Part shown: one piece after another, positions 8,495 through 53,204 of the stretch
Position numbering within the stretch: position 1 is the first letter of the stretch
How the letters are laid out: every line of letters begins with the position of its first letter
Source: an uncultured Candidatus Saccharibacteria bacterium
Lineage (GTDB): Bacteria > Patescibacteriota > WWE3 > UBA101185 > UBA10185
DNA length: 64,000 nucleotides
NCBI GenBank assembly: GCA_964510435.1
Contig: CAZEBU010000002.1
Location: 81,080-145,079 of the forward strand
Direction: 5' to 3'
Translations under genes and position numbers: made by a program
Notes under the pieces: generated by a model
The model's database searches: none
What the model saw: only the letters and a program-made list of their open reading frames with translations
Told to the model about the DNA's origin: nothing

Positions 8495-9064
8495 CTACAC
8501 GCCAATTCCTAGTATGTAAACGGGAATATCTATATCTGAAACTCCTCTGGCATTTAAATCCCATACAAACTGTTCAAAATACGACACGCCAGTAGACATC
8601 TTTGCCGCCAACTCTTTCACAGGAACTATCTCAACTCCGGCATCAATATGCCCTAAGTTACTAAAAATGGTCATTTTAGCGCATACATTGTAAACCATAA
8701 AAGAATACTTACCGAATTGCACCTCAACACCTAGCTTATTTTTTATAAAGTCCATTTCCCTGTATGCATTATTAATTTTTATTGGAGAATACCCGTCTAT
8801 AAAGTATTCTGTCGGGTAATCGCATTTCTCTCTTATTCCATATTGCCACCCTTTAGATTTAAAGATTCTTTTAAACTCGTTATTCAATTTTCGTGGAGAG
8901 TACAGTGTCTTACCTGGCATAGTTTTTTCTTTGCTCTCCTTGCTAAAACTCTTTAAAGCATCGTTTAAACCGATTGCTTCTTCAATCTCTTTTAACTCTT
9001 GACTATAATTATTTTTTACATAATCCTCGCCATTAGCGAAGGAATACCTTCCAAATATTTTCAT
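8495..9064 (-). CDS. type II restriction endonuclease, BamHI/BglII/BstYI family
   Basis: 189 aa. IDGY...GVEVQFGKYSF...LGHIDAGVEIVPVKELAAK follows the BamHI pattern (D94 ... GMEFETGNIS ... LKHGEIDLAIILMPIKQLAYY). A Gln occupies the position of BamHI Glu113, as in BglII. Sits 2 nt downstream of a methyltransferase gene. Confidence 0.6.
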   Translation of the reverse strand: MKIFGRYSFANGEDYVKNNYSQELKEIEEAIGLNDALKSFSKESKEKTMPGKTLYSPRKLNNEFKRIFKSKGWQYGIREKCDYPTEYFIDGYSPIKINNAYREMDFIKNKLGVEVQFGKYSFMVYNVCAKMTIFSNLGHIDAGVEIVPVKELAAKMSTGVSYFEQFVWDLNARGVSDIDIPVYILGIGV

Positions 9065-9066
9065 CT

Positions 9067-10005
9067 TTATTTAATCCAACTTATTGGTACCTTCGATACC
9101 TTTTCTTTTCCTGTTGGTTTGTATACTGGTTTACCTAGAGGCCTTATTCTTAATTTTCCAGCTCTTAATTTAGCAATTCTCTTCTCGGCTAAGCTAACAT
9201 ATTTTGCTTCCATTTCCATACCTAATGCATCCCTATTATGCATAATAGCACCAATAACCGTGGAACCCACACCCATAAACGGGTCGTAAACCAAATCTCC
9301 TTCGTTTGTTAATGCTAGAACACATCTCTGAACCAATTCCACGGGAAATTGACAGGGATGACCAGTCTTTTCAGGATGATTGCTTTTTACATTAGGTATT
9401 TCCCAAATTTCCTTCTCCCAATCCCCACAAATTATCTCCCAAAAATCTGAAGGATTCTTTCCTCTTGGATTACCAGAAGGTTTACCTAAATTTTTACCTT
9501 TATAGGAAAGCTTTCCTGGGTACTTTGCAGGAACTCTTACATTATCAAGGTTGAACACATACTCTTTATTCTTATCATTTTTTGTGAACCATAATATTGT
9601 CTCGTACCTACCCGAAAACCTTTTACTAGCGTGGAGTCCGTGACCAAAATGCCAGATTATTCTATTCCTTAGATGAAATCCAACGTCTTTAAAAATATTA
9701 TAAAAATAAATATCTAAGGGAAAAACTTCGCCTTTTTTGATATAGTTTCCAACCTCCCATGCTAAACTGCCGCCGTCTCTTATTTTGGAGTAAATTGCTC
9801 GAGCAAAATCTTTATAAGGATGAAGGTACTTTTCAAAATCTTTTCTTTTCTCATATTCCTTTCCAATATTGTATGGTGGAGAGGTTATAAGTAATTGTAT
9901 GCTATCATCTTCCAATTTTTTTACATGTTTGAATGTATCAACTTGGAGAATATCGTATTTACCAAATTTTTTTTGCATGTTTAATCCCAACTTTGACTGT
10001 GCCAT
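9067..10005 (-). CDS. DNA methyltransferase, beta-class (SPPY motif IV before FxGxG motif I), probable N4-cytosine or N6-adenine type II MTase
   Basis: 312 aa; LLITSPPYNIGKEY (motif IV) followed later by DPFMGVGST (motif I). This order matches the N4C/N6A beta group that includes M.BamHI and M.PvuII. Confidence 0.85.
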   Translation of the reverse strand: MAQSKLGLNMQKKFGKYDILQVDTFKHVKKLEDDSIQLLITSPPYNIGKEYEKRKDFEKYLHPYKDFARAIYSKIRDGGSLAWEVGNYIKKGEVFPLDIYFYNIFKDVGFHLRNRIIWHFGHGLHASKRFSGRYETILWFTKNDKNKEYVFNLDNVRVPAKYPGKLSYKGKNLGKPSGNPRGKNPSDFWEIICGDWEKEIWEIPNVKSNHPEKTGHPCQFPVELVQRCVLALTNEGDLVYDPFMGVGSTVIGAIMHNRDALGMEMEAKYVSLAEKRIAKLRAGKLRIRPLGKPVYKPTGKEKVSKVPISWIK

Positions 10006-12224: not shown

Positions 12225-14798
12225 GTGCTGATACTGCCCAAATTGATCTATAACTTTATCTATTGGTGGATCTATGAGATACCAAGAAACACTTTTAATG
12301 TTCTTAAAAAGATCACCTATTTTGTAAACAACGAATTTTCTTTTACCTTAAACATCAAACTTATTTTCACACCTCTCTACGGCGACAACACAATCATAGG
12401 CAGGGTAATTGGTTTTATCTTAAGAATAATTTTTATAGTTGTCGGATTTTTCTTTGTAGGATTTCTAGCCTTAGCTTCTGTGATCTTACCAACCTCTTGG
12501 TATCTCCTACCACTTATCATGTTCTATTATCTTGGCTTTTGGTCCCTACCTATCGTCGCAGCTATGTTTTTATACCATATCTACATCACCATTGATCAAC
12601 CTGATAAAAGAGTGGAAAATGTGGATGAAGAAAACAAGTTATTTTCTTTTAGGCCTCAAGTAAAGGAAATAATTAGGAAAATAAAGAAAAACCCCTCACA
12701 GGCTATAGCAAGTTTTATGAAATCTCCCGAAATTAACTCCTTGTTGGAAAAAGCAGAACTTACCGATATCAATTTCCCTGCAAAAATCGGCCAAGTAGAG
12801 AAACTCTCCACTAAAAAAGTAGAGGTTTCATCCTTTGTCTACGGCAAAAAGAACAGATCCAGATATGTAGAAAAAGAGCATTTACTTCTCGGTTTGCTTT
12901 CCTCCATTCCCGGTATAGATAATATCCTTTCGGAATTTGGCATTGAACTTAAAACTATTGAAGAAACCGCTTTGTGGATTGTCGGGAAAAGAGAGGATGA
13001 ATCCAAGCTCTACTTCTGGCAGGAAGATTACGAAACATCAACCATATCAGGTTTCGGTCATGGCCTCATCGGCAGAGTTACGCCCCATCTTGATGCAATT
13101 TCAGTTGATTATACTAAAATGGCTAAGAAAGGCCGGCTTAAAAACATTATTGGCAGGGAAGACGAAATTAAGAAAATTGCTCAATTGCTTGGCGGTTCTA
13201 GAGAAAATGTCTTACTGATCGGAGAACCCGGATGTGGAAAAACCTCTATCGTTATGGGCATGGCGCACAGAATTATGCATGGGACAAAATACAAAACTTT
13301 GCAAAACAAAAGGATCGTTAACTTACAAACCGGAAGCCTGATTGCGGGGTCAAAAACAACCGGTGAAATTGCCGAAAAACTAAAAGACGCACTTGATGAT
13401 GCTATCGGTTCTGGAGATATTATCCTCTTTATTGACGAGATTCATGCACTAGTTGGTTCTGTTAACGAAGGAGAGGGTTACTCCACAATATTCTCTATCT
13501 TAGAACCTCATTTATCCTCAAATCAGCTGCAGTTTATAGGGGCTACAAGCATAGAAAACTATCGTAAGTATATTGAATCCATAGGTTCTTTTTCAAGACT
13601 ATTTGAAATTGTAGAAATCCCTGAATCCAACCAAGAAGATACCTTGGAAATACTTAAATACATAGCTGATCTGCAAGAAGTTACTTTTGGTGTCAGAATA
13701 ACCATGCCTGCACTCTTAACAATTTTAAAACTCTCAGGAAAACTAATTCATAACCGAGTCCTTCCCGATAAAGCCATAGATGTGCTCATCAGATCCGTAG
13801 CCTTAGTCAATGATTCAACTAGGGTAGTCACTTCTAAAGTTGTGGAACAAGAAATATCCGAAATGACGCATATTCCCGTTACGGCAGTTACAGAAGAGGA
13901 GTCAGAAAAGCTTCTTAACATCTATAGAGAGATGAAAAAGTATGTGGTAGGACAAGATCACGCTCTAGAAAAAATCTCCTCAGCTTTAAAAAGAGCCAGA
14001 GTGGGAATAAGAGATGAGAAAAAGCCTATCGCCAGCTTTTTGTTTGTAGGTACAACAGGCGTAGGAAAAACAGAAACAGCAAAAACTCTCGGTAAGGTTT
14101 ATTTTGGAGATGAAACTAATATGATCCGCTTGGATATGAGTGAATATCAACACGTTGACAGCATCGAAAAATTAATTGGTTCCTCAGACGGAAAAACAAG
14201 AGGTCTGCTGACAGAGGCAGTTCGGTCAAAACCTTTTGCCGTGATACTTTTAGACGAAATTGAAAAGGCGCACCATAAAATTTTGCTTACCTTCCTGCAG
14301 GTATTGGACGACGCCCGCTTAACTGACTCCACAGGAAGAACAGTTGACTTCACCAACACAATTATTATTGCCACCAGCAACGTTGGGACAAAGCAAATTC
14401 AAAGCATTACTGAAAAAAGTGGGTCATACGAGGAAATCGAGATCGTCGCCTTAAAAGCGGTAAGAGAAAACTTCGCACCGGAGTTTCTTAATAGATTTAC
14501 GGATATTATTGTCTATAAACCCCTAGATCTAGAACACGTTCGAAAAATTGCCCGCATTTTACTATATGACGTGAAAGGGCGTACTCAAGAGCAAAACGTC
14601 AAGATTTCCTTCTCAGAGGAATTGATCGATGAATTAGTTAAAAGAGGCTACAATCCACAGTGGGGTGCCCGACCTATGGCCAGGGTAATAGAAGATTCCG
14701 TGGAAACTCATATAGCCGAGAAGCTTCTTACCAAGGAGATAAAGAGGGGGGACGTCGTCAAACTTGGCATAGAAGTGTTTGATGAGCGTCCCCATTAA
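12225..14798 (+). CDS. ClpA/ClpB-like double-AAA+ ATPase with N-terminal transmembrane segment
   Basis: 857 aa. NBD1 Walker A is GEPGCGKTS with Walker B ILFIDEIH; NBD2 Walker A is GTTGVGKTE with Walker B ILLDEIE and a sensor region. There is a single Clp_N-like repeat (EHLLLGLLSS). The first ~130 aa hold 3-4 hydrophobic helices. No long M-domain and no IGF/IGL ClpP-docking loop. Confidence 0.85.
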   Translation: MLILPKLIYNFIYWWIYEIPRNTFNVLKKITYFVNNEFSFTLNIKLIFTPLYGDNTIIGRVIGFILRIIFIVVGFFFVGFLALASVILPTSWYLLPLIMFYYLGFWSLPIVAAMFLYHIYITIDQPDKRVENVDEENKLFSFRPQVKEIIRKIKKNPSQAIASFMKSPEINSLLEKAELTDINFPAKIGQVEKLSTKKVEVSSFVYGKKNRSRYVEKEHLLLGLLSSIPGIDNILSEFGIELKTIEETALWIVGKREDESKLYFWQEDYETSTISGFGHGLIGRVTPHLDAISVDYTKMAKKGRLKNIIGREDEIKKIAQLLGGSRENVLLIGEPGCGKTSIVMGMAHRIMHGTKYKTLQNKRIVNLQTGSLIAGSKTTGEIAEKLKDALDDAIGSGDIILFIDEIHALVGSVNEGEGYSTIFSILEPHLSSNQLQFIGATSIENYRKYIESIGSFSRLFEIVEIPESNQEDTLEILKYIADLQEVTFGVRITMPALLTILKLSGKLIHNRVLPDKAIDVLIRSVALVNDSTRVVTSKVVEQEISEMTHIPVTAVTEEESEKLLNIYREMKKYVVGQDHALEKISSALKRARVGIRDEKKPIASFLFVGTTGVGKTETAKTLGKVYFGDETNMIRLDMSEYQHVDSIEKLIGSSDGKTRGLLTEAVRSKPFAVILLDEIEKAHHKILLTFLQVLDDARLTDSTGRTVDFTNTIIIATSNVGTKQIQSITEKSGSYEEIEIVALKAVRENFAPEFLNRFTDIIVYKPLDLEHVRKIARILLYDVKGRTQEQNVKISFSEELIDELVKRGYNPQWGARPMARVIEDSVETHIAEKLLTKEIKRGDVVKLGIEVFDERPH

Positions 14799-21069: not shown

Positions 21070-21690
21070 TCAGAACAACTTAAGTTGTCCATCTTGCTCA
21101 TCATCCTCTTTTTCCTCGATAAAATCACCTGATTTGATCTGTTCCAGCACCTCAGGAATTCTCAAAAAATCCTTTTTCAATGCCTCCAGCATCTTGGGGT
21201 TTCTTAAGCCGGCAGCGGGGTGGTAAATGGGAAAAACAAAGAAATTAGTAGTTTTAATTAATTCACCATGATCTCTAGATATCTTTCCCGCCTTGTAAAA
21301 AAAATTCAAAGCAAAACGTCCTAGACTAACAATCAACACCGGATCGATAGTTTTGATCTGAGCAGCTAAATATGGGATGCAGGCGTGTATCTCGTCAGGA
21401 AGCGGGTCTCTATTTCCGGGAGGACGATGTTTGATAATGTTACCAATCCAAACATCTTCTCTCTTGTAACCCAGTTCGGCTAATAGTCTCTCCAATAACA
21501 TCCCCGCCCTGCCTACAAACGGTCTGCCTGTTTCATCCTCCACAGCACCCGGAGCTTCTCCAATAAATAGTAGTTCCGAATCAACGTTACCCTCACCGGG
21601 AACGCCATGTTTTGCTTGCTTGTACAATCTACATTTTTTGCAATTTATAACATTGGTATCTATTTGTTTTACAATTTCCTCTTTTGTCAT
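21070..21690 (-). CDS. uracil-DNA glycosylase, family 4
   Basis: 206 aa; CKKCRLYK...GEGN...LLFIGEAPG...GRPFVGRAG is the family-4 UDG signature with iron-sulfur cysteines. Confidence 0.85.
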   Translation of the reverse strand: MTKEEIVKQIDTNVINCKKCRLYKQAKHGVPGEGNVDSELLFIGEAPGAVEDETGRPFVGRAGMLLERLLAELGYKREDVWIGNIIKHRPPGNRDPLPDEIHACIPYLAAQIKTIDPVLIVSLGRFALNFFYKAGKISRDHGELIKTTNFFVFPIYHPAAGLRNPKMLEALKKDFLRIPEVLEQIKSGDFIEEKEDDEQDGQLKLF

Positions 21691-22214
21691 TTGATCTTCC
21701 CTAATTGTTCCAAGGTACTTATCACCTTTAAAGTGATGCGCCGCTTTCCGCGTTGGTATATTCGATCCGAAATAAAATAAGCCTCTCTAAAAGTCATCCA
21801 GAAATACTGGTCAAACTGAGTTTCACTTATTTCCAATTTGTCCGAAGAGGAATCAACGGTACAAAAATAGTATTCCTTGCCCATCATAGCCACTTCATTA
21901 CCCCCATCATCAAGTAATGTGCCCACTTTATGCCTTCCCGGTTTAAACTCCATTCTATCTATTTCCACAAACTCCGCATTACTATATGCAAGATTCTCTG
22001 CAAAACTCTTTCCCAACTCTTCGACTATTACCCTTTTTAAGGCGCTTATAGGCTCTTCTTTATTATTGATCCTCCCTTGGGGAAGTTGCCATAATCCATA
22101 TTCCTTTTTATAAAACATAAGTATTTTATTTTGGTTAATGACGCAGGCCACTACTCCAGGTCTGAAACCTTCTTTCCTTACTTCATCCAGTTGTTTAGGC
22201 GTAGGTGTTTTCAT
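21687..22214 (-). CDS. NUDIX hydrolase
   Basis: 175 aa; Nudix box QLPQGRINNKEEPISALKRVIVEELG (Gx5Ex7REUxEExGU). Confidence 0.8.
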   Translation of the reverse strand: MKTPTPKQLDEVRKEGFRPGVVACVINQNKILMFYKKEYGLWQLPQGRINNKEEPISALKRVIVEELGKSFAENLAYSNAEFVEIDRMEFKPGRHKVGTLLDDGGNEVAMMGKEYYFCTVDSSSDKLEISETQFDQYFWMTFREAYFISDRIYQRGKRRITLKVISTLEQLGKIK

Positions 22215-22217
22215 AAC

Positions 22218-23297
22218 TCACTGAGGCAGGTATTGTTTGAGATTCTCTTGGGTTAAGTGAACTTCTGTTGCAGAGCCTTCCACTATGTTTTTGGCTACTT
22301 TCCTACATATTGATTCCAGTGTTCTTTCCAAACTTCTGATTCCTGTGTCATAACCAAACGGCCTAACTATGCCCGGCCAAAGGTCGTTATCAATAACCAG
22401 CTCACCGGGCTTAAGACCGGATCTTTCAAAAATTTGGGGCAGTAGGAAATCTCTAGAAATAATCACCTTTTCTTCATCTGTGTAGGAGGGCATCTTGATC
22501 ACTTCCATCCTATCCATTAAGGCAGTGCTTATCGTACCCGTATTATTAGCCGAACACACAAAAAGAACTTCGGATAGATCAACTGGAAAATCCACATAGT
22601 GGTCACGAAATTCATTACTTTGATTGGGATCTAGAATTTCTAATAATACCGCCATGATATCACTCAGCAAACCTCTCTCTCCACTGGCCTTATCTATTTC
22701 ATCCAGTAAAATAACAGGGTTTCTGGCACCCGTTTTTATCAAAGCCTTAACTATTTGTCCGGGCTCTGCTTCCGGCATAGACTTACTGCGCCCCCTAAGT
22801 TCCAAGGTAGAACCAATACCGCCCATGGCAATTCGAACAAATTTACGATCCAAAGACTTAGCTATGGACATGGCTAAAGTCGTTTTTCCTACACCTTGCA
22901 GACCAACAAACAATAAAACCGGTGTTTTAGCAAACATATTACCACCTCGTTTATTAATAAGGATCAAGGACGCCAGATATTCTAGAATTCTCTCCTTAAC
23001 AAAATACATTCCGTAGTGGGTTGAATCTAAAATTTCCTTGGTGTTATCCAGATCCAACTTATCCACGGTTCTTTTATCCCAAGGTATTTTGGAGATTATA
23101 TTTACATACCGGGAGAGAATATCAAACTCCGAGGAATAATGCCCCATCTTGGCCATCCTGTTTAACCTATTTAGCATTTGCCCAAGTCTACTTTCCAACA
23201 ACGGGGGCAATCCCGAAATCTCATCGAGCGTTTTTGACAACTGCTCTAATTCTTCAAAGATATATTTATCTACATCACTCATTATTTCTAACCACAA
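22218..23297 (-). CDS. Lon-type AAA+ ATPase module without LAN or protease domains
   Basis: 359 aa. Collinear with E. coli Lon residues ~230-600 (VPWNARS.../ILDTDHYGLERVKDRILEYLA/GPPGVGKTSL.../LLDEIDK.../MEVI). Ours reads IPWDKRTV...ILDSTHYGMYFVKERILEYLA, GLQGVGKTTL, LLDEIDK, MEVIKMPSYTDEEK. The ORF ends at the AAA/protease domain boundary; no Ser-Lys protease domain is present. Confidence 0.8.
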   Translation of the reverse strand: MWLEIMSDVDKYIFEELEQLSKTLDEISGLPPLLESRLGQMLNRLNRMAKMGHYSSEFDILSRYVNIISKIPWDKRTVDKLDLDNTKEILDSTHYGMYFVKERILEYLASLILINKRGGNMFAKTPVLLFVGLQGVGKTTLAMSIAKSLDRKFVRIAMGGIGSTLELRGRSKSMPEAEPGQIVKALIKTGARNPVILLDEIDKASGERGLLSDIMAVLLEILDPNQSNEFRDHYVDFPVDLSEVLFVCSANNTGTISTALMDRMEVIKMPSYTDEEKVIISRDFLLPQIFERSGLKPGELVIDNDLWPGIVRPFGYDTGIRSLERTLESICRKVAKNIVEGSATEVHLTQENLKQYLPQ

Positions 23298-24210
23298 ATT
23301 TATTAAACTGCTTATCTTTTACTTCATTTATTAAAGGCAGAAGATCCTCCATAGGTGAGTAGACCATCATAAGATCAAGGACCTCCTCAAAATTATCGAA
23401 ACTCATAAATAAAAGCTGGCCGCTGTCAGGTAATTGTGTCTTATAGCTTTTGTACTTAGGATTGTGCGCAATATTTTTCGAAATATCACCCGCAGACTCC
23501 TCTACACTTACCAGGAAGGGCTCATACTCGGTAATAACTAAAGCTTGTTTTACTTTACTAAGAAAATACTTTTCTGACTCCACAGTTTCTAAGAATTCCT
23601 TGTTCATAATCTTACTTTCCTGCTCATCCAGCATCAAAACAAGCGCTAGCCGCCATTCCTGATCAATTTTTTGACCGAAAATAATGTATCTTCCCGAAAG
23701 GTAATCTCCAAAATCATTTAGTATTCCCTCTTCGTCGAGTGCACCCCAAAAGAATTGGTAGGAAGCTAGTAAATCACTCCCTATAATATAAAAATCCACC
23801 TCGAAAGGAATGTACTTAGTTAAATCCCCAACGTCAAAAACGATATTCGGTTGTTCTAGGTTATAAACGACGGTATTATCATATCTTTCTTCCGGAATCT
23901 CCATAGCTACGTCCTTAACAGCCATTTCTTCTCTATCTTTTAGCTTGTTTTGCGTAAAAATGATGGAAATTATGGAAACAGCGGCTGCAACTAAAACCAG
24001 AGCAAAAGCAGTGAGGAACTTTTTATTGATATGGAGCTTAACCCTTACTTTCTTTTTTTCTTTTTCTGGGGGAACAAAAGAAGTTCTCTTAATTTGGAAG
24101 GTGGTAGTGTGGTTAATTAGTTTGTCATCTAATTTGTGACCACAAGATCTACAAAAGTAACCCTCATCATCATGTAAGTTTTTATTACAATTAGGACAGA
24201 TTCTATTCAC
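23275..24210 (-). CDS. hypothetical zinc-ribbon membrane protein
   Basis: 311 aa; N-terminal CPNC...CRSC zinc ribbon, one TM helix (FLTAFALVLVAAAVSIISIIF), then an extracytoplasmic domain. Overlaps the Lon-like gene by 23 nt. Confidence 0.5.
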   Translation of the reverse strand: MNRICPNCNKNLHDDEGYFCRSCGHKLDDKLINHTTTFQIKRTSFVPPEKEKKKVRVKLHINKKFLTAFALVLVAAAVSIISIIFTQNKLKDREEMAVKDVAMEIPEERYDNTVVYNLEQPNIVFDVGDLTKYIPFEVDFYIIGSDLLASYQFFWGALDEEGILNDFGDYLSGRYIIFGQKIDQEWRLALVLMLDEQESKIMNKEFLETVESEKYFLSKVKQALVITEYEPFLVSVEESAGDISKNIAHNPKYKSYKTQLPDSGQLLFMSFDNFEEVLDLMMVYSPMEDLLPLINEVKDKQFNKFVVRNNE

Positions 24211-26793: not shown

Positions 26794-27459
26794 TCAATCT
26801 TTATAGGGAGGGGTTTTAGAAATAATTCCTTTTAATAAAGCCTTAGCTGTCTTTTCATCCGGAGCTAATTCCCATTGAGTGGCTTTTTGCAGTACCAGAA
26901 GTGAAAGTGAACTAGTCTTAGGTTCTACGACATTAACAAAACCGAATCTCTCGTTCCTATCGGTTATGTCAATATTAATTATCTTTGAAGTTTTTGAAGC
27001 TTTGTCCAAACTCCTGTAGATCTGCCCTAGATCAAAAAGATTTTGCGCACCAATAATAAATAGGACATCAAAATCGTAACCTGCAATTTTCGATCTAATT
27101 TTCTCTCTACTGTTAAAGTTTGGGGGGATAGGACTTATGGTCAAATATAAAATACCCTCATCCGTCGTATAATTAACCTTTGAGGCTTGGGTATCAGAAT
27201 AATCAATGGAAACAACCAAATTTCTTTGTTTAACTTCTCTGGTGATCTTATTTGCATTAATAAGGTCTTTCCCTTCCTCAGGCACTTTCCCGGGATAAAT
27301 AAAGGTAACTTCTTTCTCACTGTTTATTAACATGTGATAAATTCCTACACTAGCACAATAGGCATCCAAACCTGCTACCTTAGAGGTCATTATGGCAATA
27401 TTCTTTGCACCATTAAGCAATGTTGCTACCTTGTCTTTCACCACATCATTATTATTCAT
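26794..27459 (-). CDS. DHH-family phosphoesterase-like protein (degenerate motifs)
   Basis: 221 aa; NIAIMTSKVAGLDAYCASVGIYHMLI resembles DHH motifs I-II of NrnA-like proteins. The DHH triad position reads SIDYS. It occupies the slot usually held by rbfA or an nrnA-like gene between infB and rpsO. Confidence 0.45.
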   Translation of the reverse strand: MNNNDVVKDKVATLLNGAKNIAIMTSKVAGLDAYCASVGIYHMLINSEKEVTFIYPGKVPEEGKDLINANKITREVKQRNLVVSIDYSDTQASKVNYTTDEGILYLTISPIPPNFNSREKIRSKIAGYDFDVLFIIGAQNLFDLGQIYRSLDKASKTSKIINIDITDRNERFGFVNVVEPKTSSLSLLVLQKATQWELAPDEKTAKALLKGIISKTPPYKD

Positions 27460-51107: not shown

Positions 51108-53204
51108 ATGGCTAATTTAAAAGAGTTAAGAAAAGAAAGGATAAAAAAGCTCGAAAAACTCAGAGAAATAGGTATTGATCCCTATCCTTCCAGCTCTAAA
51201 AAAGATCTTTCAAACCTTGAGGCCACCATTAATCATGAGGATTACAGAAACAAATCACTACATCTCACCGGCAGAATTCTCTCTTTGAGAGAGCATAATA
51301 AGCTGGTTTTTATAGATCTGCACGATTATTCGGGTAAGGTACAACTTTATATCAAAGATGACAAACTAAAAAAGACTAACGTTCAGGAGCAAATCCTAGG
51401 GTTTTCTGATCTGCATCTTCTCGATATTGGTGACTTCATAGAAGCTGAAGGGAAAATGACAAAAACAAAAACCGGTGAAGTTTCTCTGCAGGTATCTTCC
51501 CTAAAGATCCTAGCTAAAGCGATCCGTCCTTTACCGGAAAAGAGGGAGGGATTAAAGGATGCGGAAACAATTTTTCGAAAAAGATACCTGGATCTGGCCA
51601 CCAAACCTGAACGGAGAGAACTTTTTGCCAGAAAATCAAGATATTGGCAAGCTAGCAGAAATTTCTTGAATAACAAGGGGTTTATTGAAGTAGAAACTCC
51701 CATTTTGGAACATGTTACCGGCGGTGCCGATGCCAAACCGTTTATTACTCATCATGACGCTCTTGACGAGGATTTTTTCTTGAGGATCTCCTCAGAGTTA
51801 TATTTAAAAAGACTAATTGGGGGCGGATTCGAAAAAATATACACCTTTGGGGCAAACTTCAGAAATGAGGGCCTGAGCGACGAGCACCTGCAGGAATTTT
51901 ATCAACTAGAATGGTACTGGGCTTATGCAGACTACCGACAAAATATGGCCTTGGTAAAAGAAATGTTTAGACATATAGCCAAAGAGATCTATCAAAAAAC
52001 CGATTTCGTGAAAAACGATTATAAGTTTGACCTGGCCGACAAGTGGGAAGAAATCGAGTATGTAAAAATAATTAAGGATAAATTTAAAGTAGATGTCTTT
52101 GAAACCTCCGACGAGATGGTGCTAAATATACTTAAGGAAAATAATGTCACCCTCCCGGGCACGGTTAATAGAAACAGATTAATAGACAATTTATGGAAAC
52201 TTGCCCGCAAAGATATTTCCGGACCAGCCTTTTTAATTGATCTACCAAATTTTATATCACCATTGGCAAAAGAACTCCCAGGCAGTAAGCGTCTAACGGA
52301 GCGGTTTCAGGTTATCATCGCTGGTAGTGAGTTGGGAAATGGCTACAGCGAGTTGAACGATCCTTTCGATCAGTTAGCAAGGTTTAAGGAACAGCAAGCG
52401 GCCAGGGATGCCGGTGATGAGGAAGCGCAAATGCTAGATATTGATTATGTAGAGATGCTCGAATACGGTATGCCGCCAACTTCCGGATATGGACAAAGTG
52501 AAAGGATCTTCTGGTTTTTAGAAAATATCACCGCCAGGGAAGGAACTCTTTTTCCTCAGATGAGAAAAAAGGTCGATGAAGTAAATAAGGATATTTATCA
52601 ACTATCTGCGGCAAACCACCAAAAAGCATCACCCGAATTACCGGAGCTACCTAGGACAGTAGAATTTTCCAAAGAGGCGGTACACCCCCTCTTGGAAAAT
52701 TTTGTAGACGATAACTATCAAAAATTACACGCCAAAATGGTGGCCAAGGGTATGGAGGCCTATGCCGAATCATTCGGGGAAGATAAAGATCTCTGGTATA
52801 TCACTGGTTTACTCCATGATCTAGATTATTTCAAATTTCCGGATGAACATCCTTTAGTAGAGCTTGTCTGGTTTAAAAAATGGCACTTTCCCGACCAATT
52901 TCTGCATGCGGTTGCTTCTCATGCCCATAAAAAAACAGGTGTTGAGCCGGAAACCAAAATCGCTCATGCTTTAATGGCTATTGATGAGCTGGCAGGCTTT
53001 TTGTATGCCTACTCGCTAATGAGACCGGAAGGTTTTACCGGTATGAAAGCCAAATCAGTTAAGAAAAAGTTCAAAGACAAAGCCTTTGCCAGAAAAGTAG
53101 ATAGAGAAGAAATTAAAGCGGGTTTTAGCAATCTAGGGATAGATTTCTCCAAACATATAGACTTTCTAATAGAAATCTATCGAGAAATGGATGAATTTAA
53201 ATAG
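51108..53204 (+). CDS. lysS: lysyl-tRNA synthetase (class II) fused to a C-terminal HD-domain
   Basis: 698 aa. Residues 1-~490 hold the OB anticodon-binding domain and class II core (FRNEGLSDEHLQEFYQLEWYWAY, motif 3 GYGQSERIFWFL). The C-terminal ~190 aa carry an HD domain (LHAKMV...LLHDLD...ASHAH...AIDE). Confidence 0.9.
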   Translation: MANLKELRKERIKKLEKLREIGIDPYPSSSKKDLSNLEATINHEDYRNKSLHLTGRILSLREHNKLVFIDLHDYSGKVQLYIKDDKLKKTNVQEQILGFSDLHLLDIGDFIEAEGKMTKTKTGEVSLQVSSLKILAKAIRPLPEKREGLKDAETIFRKRYLDLATKPERRELFARKSRYWQASRNFLNNKGFIEVETPILEHVTGGADAKPFITHHDALDEDFFLRISSELYLKRLIGGGFEKIYTFGANFRNEGLSDEHLQEFYQLEWYWAYADYRQNMALVKEMFRHIAKEIYQKTDFVKNDYKFDLADKWEEIEYVKIIKDKFKVDVFETSDEMVLNILKENNVTLPGTVNRNRLIDNLWKLARKDISGPAFLIDLPNFISPLAKELPGSKRLTERFQVIIAGSELGNGYSELNDPFDQLARFKEQQAARDAGDEEAQMLDIDYVEMLEYGMPPTSGYGQSERIFWFLENITAREGTLFPQMRKKVDEVNKDIYQLSAANHQKASPELPELPRTVEFSKEAVHPLLENFVDDNYQKLHAKMVAKGMEAYAESFGEDKDLWYITGLLHDLDYFKFPDEHPLVELVWFKKWHFPDQFLHAVASHAHKKTGVEPETKIAHALMAIDELAGFLYAYSLMRPEGFTGMKAKSVKKKFKDKAFARKVDREEIKAGFSNLGIDFSKHIDFLIEIYREMDEFK

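Follow-up and report, generated by a model that had tools for sequence, protein, structure and literature searches.

A protease-less Lon-type AAA+ ATPase encoded beside a zinc-ribbon membrane protein in WWE3-type Patescibacteria

In the published Lon classification, all Lons contain both an ATPase and a protease domain (PMC9569914). Here we describe a gene, called Lon-AAA in the following, that encodes the ATPase part of a Lon and no protease. It lies on the minus strand of a 64,000-nucleotide stretch of contig CAZEBU010000002.1 (positions 81,080 to 145,079), from an uncultured Candidatus Saccharibacteria bacterium placed in WWE3; this whole stretch is referred to as the window. Compared with LonA, the three-helix bundle, the alpha/beta subdomain and the Lon_lid of Lon-AAA are collinear and 36-40% identical, and the Walker A and B motifs, the sensor-1 Asn, the DRMEVI Arg finger and the sensor-2 Arg are kept. 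However, Lon-AAA has no LAN/PUA domain, no coiled coil and no S16 Ser-Lys domain, its pore-loop 1 reads x-[FYL/M/polar]-P-[ED] in place of TY[VI]G, its pore-loop 2 is longer, and it falls in a separate clade. Lon-AAA descends from LonA, the known system that it most resembles, and misses four of its defining features, namely the S16 domain, the LAN domain, the pore-loop motif and the curated family score.

Other described systems share single traits with this protein. There is a precedent for ATPase-dependent, protease-independent chaperone activity of Lon in Pim1 and LONP1 (PMC12994072). The inactive chaperone forms, yeast Pim1 with a Ser-to-Ala substitution and LONP1 acting with mtHSP70, resemble Lon-AAA in this protease-independent use of the AAA+ module (PMC12994072), but they are engineered or moonlighting versions of a full-length protease with the canonical pore-loop Tyr, whereas in Lon-AAA the protease was lost by evolution and the loop was changed. 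ClpX belongs to the same HCLR clade and is a ring ATPase without a protease domain that carries a C4 zinc module for adaptors and substrates (references 189 and 190 of PMC12994072). In ClpX, however, the zinc domain is fused to the ATPase, the pore loop is GYVG and IGF loops dock ClpP, whereas the zinc ribbon found with Lon-AAA is on a separate, mostly membrane-anchored protein; the ClpX model was not among the Pfam and NCBIfam matches of Lon-AAA, whose weak Clp matches were to ClpA and ClpB. Archaeal LonB, Bacillus LonBA and FtsH are membrane-held rings, as is proposed for Lon-AAA through its zinc-ribbon transmembrane partner. LonB and LonBA have their anchor within the AAA+ module or N-terminally in the same polypeptide, and they retain a protease domain (PMC9569914), whereas the anchoring of Lon-AAA would be in trans and would involve no protease. 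Finally, in LonC, a Lon-like protease that lacks ATP-powered unfolding, the ATPase and protease activities are uncoupled (PMC3391209), and LonC is the mirror image of the present protein: it keeps the protease with a dead ATPase, whereas Lon-AAA has a predicted live ATPase and no protease.

The Lon-type ATPase module and its conservation

The original prediction placed an open reading frame (ORF) containing only the central region of Lon at 22218..23297 of the window, on the minus strand, and searches with Pfam, NCBIfam and phmmer against the PDB bore this out. The ORF indeed spans 22218..23297, and a TTG at 23297 would give a protein of 359 amino acids (aa). The likely start is the ATG at 23282, which gives 354 aa and is the start of the public gene call for an identical protein (P0001, 354 aa). 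With this start, the overlap with the upstream zinc-ribbon gene is 8 nt (ATGAGTGA, 23275-23282) and not 23 nt as originally described; the 8-nt overlap is also present in loci L001, L002, L010 and L011. The features of the gene are as follows, with the residue numbers of E. coli Lon for sensor-1 (N473), the Arg finger (R484) and sensor-2 (R542) taken from PMC9569914.

22218..23282, minus strand: coding sequence of the protease-less Lon-type AAA+ ATPase, 354 aa, with the TGA stop at 22218-22220
22953..23282, minus strand: N-terminal helical region (aa 1-110), equivalent to the LonA three-helix bundle and linker by alignment and model
22878..22904, minus strand: Walker A, GLQGVGKTT (aa 127-135), with G130, G132, K133 and T134 invariant in the family alignment
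22758..22796, minus strand: rewritten pore-loop 1, RGRSKSMPEAEPG (aa 163-175), from the alignment to LonA
22692..22715, minus strand: Walker B, VILLDEID (aa 190-197), from the family alignment
22653..22691, minus strand: pore-loop 2 region, KASGERGLLSDIM (aa 198-210), with 2-3 residues more than its LonA counterpart
22500..22556, minus strand: sensor-1 CSANN and Arg finger MDRMEV (N246 = E. coli N473; R258 = E. coli R484)
22323..22343, minus strand: sensor-2, GIRSLER, inside the Lon_lid alpha-subdomain (R316 = E. coli Lon R542)
22221..22238, minus strand: conserved extreme C-terminus, KQYLPQ, from the family alignment

Pfam matches in the protein were limited to AAA (aa 128-267) and Lon_lid (aa 291-342). 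The NCBIfam model TIGR00763 ('lon') was aligned over positions 254-572 of 795 and scored 333 bits against a cutoff of 608, a shortfall explained by the lack of any match to the two ends of the model; the score for NF008053 was 259 against a cutoff of 891. No LAN/PUA domain was found before the N-terminal helical region, and the TIGR00763 match begins only at position 254. In the PDB, phmmer retrieved LonA of Bacillus, E. coli, Meiothermus, Yersinia, Thermus and mitochondria at 1e-67 to 1e-75, and a chance match is excluded because the E-values reach 1e-75 and lower. The protein is collinear with the B. subtilis, E. coli, Meiothermus and human enzymes from Meiothermus residue 244 to the AAA/protease boundary, and these alignments reproduce the predicted correspondence to the centre of E. 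coli Lon. The AlphaFold2 model, with a mean predicted local distance difference test (pLDDT) score of 87.6, is a confident Lon AAA+ fold. Its best reciprocal Foldseek match is 6n2i, the isolated AAA+ module of E. coli Lon (TMq 0.87, TMt 0.91). The N-terminal region forms helices at residues 3-20, 27-46, 50-65, 78-88 and 93-111, and the model contains no hydrophobic insertion, the AAA domain being contiguous over aa 128-267. The family alignment contains all of the motifs first noted (Walker A, Walker B, sensor and MEVI), and Walker A/B, sensor-1, the Arg finger and sensor-2 are conserved across 120 WWE3 clusters and 13 deep relatives. The site thus seems able to bind and hydrolyse ATP and to communicate between subunits.

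We compared the best 120 homolog clusters. All of them are 352-382 aa long with an identical Pfam architecture and no S16 domain, and the source organisms that are named are Patescibacteria, WWE3 or Saccharimonadales. The gene is carried by 27 WWE3-type species-representative metagenome-assembled genomes at 62-81% identity, and in the scan of species representatives one copy (L020) was located on a curated complete 897-kb genome. Over shared genome pairs, the median identity was 69% for Lon-AAA, 61% for PNPase, 61% for the uracil-DNA glycosylase (UDG), 51% for RNase J and 43% for the NUDIX hydrolase. Lon-AAA is the most conserved gene of its block and is under strong purifying selection.

The same comparison bears on whether the protein is a decaying remnant or an artefact, that is, a lon gene truncated by a frameshift, mis-assembly or recent deletion. 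We built hidden Markov models (HMMs) of the S16 and LAN domains from 41 full-length Lon hits and searched all six frames of the window and of 36 Patescibacteria loci (about 450 kb, 37 copies); neither domain was found at E<=1. In the full-length Lon of the Leptospiraceae locus L036, used as positive control, the same models detected S16 at 3e-70 and LAN at 2.5e-41. No frame encodes an S16 domain that a frameshift could have detached, no S16 ORF lies beside the gene at the 36 related loci, and these scans, with their working control, rule out a frameshift or a hidden S16 or LAN domain. Nor are the flanking genes Lon fragments: Pfam and NCBIfam identify them as a zinc-ribbon transmembrane protein, a NUDIX hydrolase and a family-4 UDG, as had been proposed. 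Although the NCBIfam lon score is below its cutoff and some homologs are still labelled 'Lon protease', as a remnant might be, this explanation is extremely improbable, given that the same architecture recurs in more than 120 clusters and 27 species, that the gene is the best conserved of its block with invariant catalytic ATPase residues, that no S16 remnant is present in any frame of the window or the 36 loci, and that the homologs are mostly not contig-end fragments, many lying inside contigs of 20-900 kb. The view that a clean cut at the domain boundary had left a functional AAA+-only protein and not a pseudogene is therefore upheld by an architecture shared by 120 clusters and 27 genomes.

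An exhaustive search of 50%-identity representatives for AAA-only proteins recovered further members at 40-54% identity, some of them about 350-380 aa long. Other AAA-only relatives carry N-terminal extensions of 40-350 aa, and insertions or C-terminal tails occur in a few. These N-terminal extensions are disordered, of low complexity and rich in Q, P, S and T (P0136, P0145, P0147, P0149, P0151/P0273; loci L038-L040); these are disordered tails and not zinc ribbons, and we rejected the idea that the longer relatives are Rosetta-stone fusions. Such tails are frequent among the deep-branching relatives that have no zinc-ribbon neighbour; in P0152 and P0155 the disordered tail is at the C-terminus. 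In a neighbour-joining tree of the AAA modules, the AAA-only and WWE3 proteins group together, apart from full-length LonA and from Lons with several AAA modules, and the phylogeny of the module thus yields a clade separate from LonA with moderate bootstrap support for the split (129/200, 65%). Two 'AAA-only' sequences that were placed among the full-length Lons look like truncated gene calls. Lon-AAA itself ends at most 8 residues past the lid, has no S16 or LAN domain, carries the pore-loop 1 of the clade and groups with it in the tree.

Metagenomes also contain Lon relatives in which two to five Lon-type AAA+ modules are arranged in tandem (P0121, P0122, P0125, P0128, P0130, P0140, P0154). 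One of them, P0121 (1113 aa; Candidatus Dependentiae according to NCBI), carries three AAA+/Lon_lid modules and, after them, a single S16 domain, and lacks a LAN domain. Among 150 representatives, 29 multi-AAA proteins have S16, and three more have two modules and no S16.

Pore-loop 1 and the missing protease

Pore-loop 1 of full-length LonA is R-R-T-Y-[VIL]-G, with the Tyr present in 69 of 69 sequences, and the loop of the AAA-only clade is S-[KR]-x-x-P-[ED]-A-E-P-G. In the window protein, M169 corresponds to Y398 of E. coli Lon, P170 to I399 and E171 to G400. Across the 120 WWE3 clusters, the Tyr position is occupied by Phe in 72, Tyr in 29, Leu in 16, and Met, Gln and Thr in one each, the Met being that of the window protein; in the deep AAA-only relatives it is Q, N, S, E, H, R or F. 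The next two positions in WWE3 are Pro in 111/120, in place of the hydrophobic residue, and Glu or Asp in 106/120, in place of the Gly. Because the replacement residues are highly conserved, the pore loop, whose change the original prediction did not note, is better described as re-specified than as decayed. The pore-loop tyrosines of Lon thread the substrate into the protease chamber (PMC12994072), and the loss of the Tyr fits a ring that no longer feeds such a chamber.

A different account of these data is that Lon is split, the ring acting as an unfoldase-translocase that feeds an S16 or other peptidase encoded elsewhere, in the manner of ClpX-ClpP and HslU-HslV. In favour of this account, none of the ATPase motifs is degraded, F, Y or L is retained at the pore-loop position in most WWE3 members, and stand-alone Lon-like protease proteins are known (PMC3391209). 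A docking tail might also be sought at the C-terminus: the WWE3 proteins end exactly one residue past YLP in 114/120 clusters, at the position of the LonA lid/protease junction, and this YLP-x terminus is highly conserved in WWE3. The tail is not kept across the AAA-only clade, however, two members have long disordered extensions after it, and we rejected YLP-x as a C-terminal docking motif because it is WWE3-specific. No S16 domain was found in the approximately 450 kb that flank the 37 copies, although the scan was confined to these surroundings; the Tyr of 69/69 LonA sequences is not conserved and is replaced by polar residues in the deep relatives; and a natural split LonA is not described in the Lon classification (PMC9569914). 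Taken together, these observations make a split Lon rather unlikely.

The zinc-ribbon partner and a proposed function

The gene directly upstream of Lon-AAA encodes the protein that the original prediction regarded as a possible membrane adaptor. Its features are the following.

23275..24210, minus strand: zinc-ribbon single-pass membrane protein, 311 aa, GTG start, from the ORF, Pfam and the alignment
24139..24198, minus strand: C4 zinc ribbon, CPNC-x11-FCRSCG (aa 5-24); no other part of the partner is strongly conserved
23956..24072, minus strand: Lys-rich juxtamembrane linker (aa 47-65) and transmembrane helix (aa 66-85), from transmembrane prediction

Among 21 partner orthologs, which are only 15-36% identical to the window protein, C5, C8, F19, C20 and C23 are invariant and one transmembrane helix is predicted in every member (21/21); the median identity of the partner across loci is 24%. 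Zinc-ribbon Pfam models matched 11 of the 21 members, all below the gathering score, and no other Pfam domain was found. Lys and Arg residues flanking the helix average 4.6 on the N-terminal side and 2.9 on the C-terminal side, a modest positive-inside bias that would place the zinc ribbon in the cytoplasm. The C-terminal part, about 225 aa, is a fast-evolving alpha/beta domain that would then be extracytoplasmic. A single-sequence search for relatives of the partner returned only the protein itself, and a 21-sequence profile returned only 8 proteins, because the family evolves too fast for a word index; no relatives beyond this group were detected.

Of 26 distinct WWE3 loci, about 25 have a zinc-ribbon ORF directly upstream of Lon-AAA, mostly at -26 to +22 nt from the Lon-AAA ORF. 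Among the WWE3 loci with a readable upstream region, 24 encode an ortholog of 300-347 aa with the N-terminal ribbon and one transmembrane helix. Locus L010 has the partner gene split into two ORFs, L031 keeps only the ribbon and the transmembrane helix (99 aa), and L026 keeps a soluble ribbon alone, of about 46 aa, which still overlaps the ATPase gene by 8 nt. The survival of the ribbon in L026 and L031 therefore marks it as the element that stays with the ATPase. Locus L028 is the sole WWE3 locus without a zinc-ribbon ORF upstream. There, about 1 kb separates PNPase from the ATPase (L028:3122-4137) with no plus-strand ORF of at least 60 aa, and the gap could reflect gene loss or a degraded copy. 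In the deeper relatives the upstream gene is a divergent alanyl-tRNA synthetase (L007), an unrelated DUF4012 protein (L006) or PNPase (L039 and L040), and peptidase genes lie nearby in L038. The L006 protein occupies the same position as the partner, and a comparison of the two with hhalign gave a probability of 3% that the C-terminal domain of the partner is related to it; they were judged unrelated.

From these results we propose that Lon-AAA is a non-degradative, Lon-derived AAA+ remodeller that works with the zinc-ribbon partner, a reading to which we give somewhat better than an even chance. The conserved catalytic and Arg-finger residues suggest that Lon-AAA would form a Lon-like hexameric ring that hydrolyses ATP. 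With no chamber and no Tyr-hydrophobic-Gly paddle, such a ring would act as a remodeller or chaperone and not as a processive translocase feeding a protease, and it may grip or partly unfold its clients through the acidic pore motif P-[ED]-A-E-P-G. In WWE3, the translationally coupled upstream protein would supply in trans the role that the missing N-domain plays in cis: its cytoplasmic C4 ribbon would dock on the ring or be handled by it, and its transmembrane helix would put the complex at the membrane. More speculatively, a basic segment, for example the Lys-rich linker of the partner, might be held in the acidic pore, but the basicity of this linker is not uniform.

Several observations weigh against the proposed remodeller. 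A bulky hydrophobic residue (F, Y, L or M) is present at the Tyr position in 118/120 WWE3 clusters, and some translocation ability may persist in WWE3 members. The hexamer, the ATPase activity and the contact with the zinc ribbon are read from sequence, and the restricted span of the S16 scan, noted above, counts in the same direction. The AlphaFold2 model of the partner, calculated from an 8-sequence alignment, has a pLDDT of 43 and is too poor for its fold to be interpreted, beyond a helix at residues 63-91. The whole region is syntenic across WWE3, so that adjacency alone is weak evidence. In addition, the partner is absent from the deeper relatives L006, L007, L038, L039 and L040, which makes it a WWE3-specific addition and not a core requirement of the family. 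The idea of a membrane adaptor is strengthened by the presence of the ribbon upstream in about 25/26 loci and by its survival where the transmembrane helix, the C-terminal domain or both were lost, and the partner is best regarded as a putative adaptor.

Gene neighbourhood and place among Lon proteins

The minus-strand genes around Lon-AAA are arranged in the order NusA, IF-2, a 221-aa DHH-like protein, S15, PNPase, the zinc-ribbon protein, Lon-AAA, NUDIX hydrolase, UDG, RNase J, FtsK and a RodZ-like protein, and in the part of this series that begins with PNPase and ends with the RodZ-like gene the gaps measure -8 to 23 nt. A promoter and terminator scan of the window gave matches at chance level and no operon boundaries. 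The two genes directly downstream are these.

21687..22214, minus strand: NUDIX hydrolase gene, 3 nt downstream of Lon-AAA, from Pfam and NCBIfam
21070..21690, minus strand: family-4 UDG gene, from Pfam and NCBIfam

The physical adjacency behind the earlier suggestion of an operon with NUDIX and UDG is real, but NUDIX was detected in 13 of 32 WWE3-type loci and UDG in 30 of 32. Among the deeper relatives, UDG is kept in L005, where it overlaps by 4 nt, and in L007, and is missing in L006, L008, L038, L039 and L040. We treat NUDIX and UDG as neighbours, variable inserts in an old block, and not as parts of the system. What stays the same over 41-100% identity is that the gene lies inside a pnp...rnj...ftsK block, and in L039 and L040 the order is directly PNPase-LonAAA-RNase J. 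A similar pnp...rnj...ftsK order occurs in Firmicutes and Actinobacteria without the Lon-AAA gene, so that the location of Lon-AAA may be a matter of inheritance and not of function.

This context could also be read as a sign that the targets of the ring are nucleoprotein complexes or the machinery of RNA decay or DNA repair. A position in the block that is held from 41% to 100% identity, the PNPase-LonAAA-RNase J order, the 4-nt overlap with UDG in L005 and the binding of single-stranded DNA by Lon (PMC12994072) would agree with a nucleic-acid-linked role. We nevertheless consider such a role unlikely, since the synteny may be no more than inherited, NUDIX and UDG come and go, L038 sits in an unrelated context with M16 and M23 peptidases, and an acidic pore is a poor channel for nucleic acid.

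BrxL, the ATPase of BREX defence systems, is related to Lon. That Lon-AAA is a defence ATPase of this or a similar Lon-like type has next to no likelihood: PADLOC returned one weak match, to DolB at 36 bits, that reflects generic AAA similarity only and returned none to BrxL, there is no Lon_C-like domain, and the housekeeping context is syntenic across the whole class. A defence role was rejected on these grounds.

Other genes of the window deserve a brief description. The 221-aa protein (26794-27459, minus strand) lies between infB and rpsO and is present in all WWE3 loci (212-220 aa). Its sole match is a sub-threshold DHH N-terminal domain (24.5 bits against 28.1) with no DHHA1, and it may be a degenerate NrnA-like remnant. 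The NUDIX box, read by eye, is G-x5-E-x7-R-V-I-V-E-E-L-G, with Val in place of the Glu of the R-E motif; the catalytic competence of this NUDIX protein is uncertain, and it is the most variable in presence among the genes of the block. A ClpB/ClpC-type double-AAA protein of 857 aa (12225-14798, plus strand) is syntenic near Lon-AAA in related loci, so that a separate disaggregase-type AAA+ protein is kept beside the protease-less Lon. At 51108-53204 (plus strand), a 698-aa protein of unusual architecture carries an HD phosphohydrolase domain at its C-terminus, fused to a class II aminoacyl-tRNA synthetase of the Asp/Lys/Asn type that has an OB anticodon-binding domain. At 8495-10005 (minus strand), an N6/N4 DNA methylase gene (312 aa) is directly followed by that of a BglII-family restriction endonuclease (189 aa), and the two form a type II restriction-modification pair in a stretch of lower GC content (about 34%). 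No tRNA genes and no Rfam families at gathering score were found in the 64-kb window.

Our literature searches returned no description of a protease-less Lon in the Candidate Phyla Radiation or WWE3. Database entries for these sequences already exist, under the name 'AAA family ATPase' or the mistaken label 'Lon protease'. Lon-AAA is thus not a new gene; it is an uncharacterised protease-less offshoot of Lon that should not be filed as a Lon protease. It matches the construct that structural biologists cut out of E. coli Lon (6n2i). A Lon classification based on MEROPS misses the whole branch because the branch has no peptidase unit.

We tentatively raise a broader possibility, which we hold to be less probable than the remodelling function itself: that WWE3-type Patescibacteria and their relatives are without any Lon protease and have kept its motor as an essential-grade, non-proteolytic AAA+ protein with an acidic pore, recruited by a zinc-ribbon membrane protein. 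If true, the chaperone or remodelling function of Lon would be naturally split from proteolysis, and these proteins would form a new class outside the LonA/B/C/BA scheme. The protease-independent chaperone role of Lon has so far been shown with engineered catalytic mutants only, and the clade offers a natural system for asking what a Lon ring does without proteolysis. It also enlarges the very small proteome of Patescibacteria by a conserved factor, probably an important one, that would serve in protein quality control or at the membrane.

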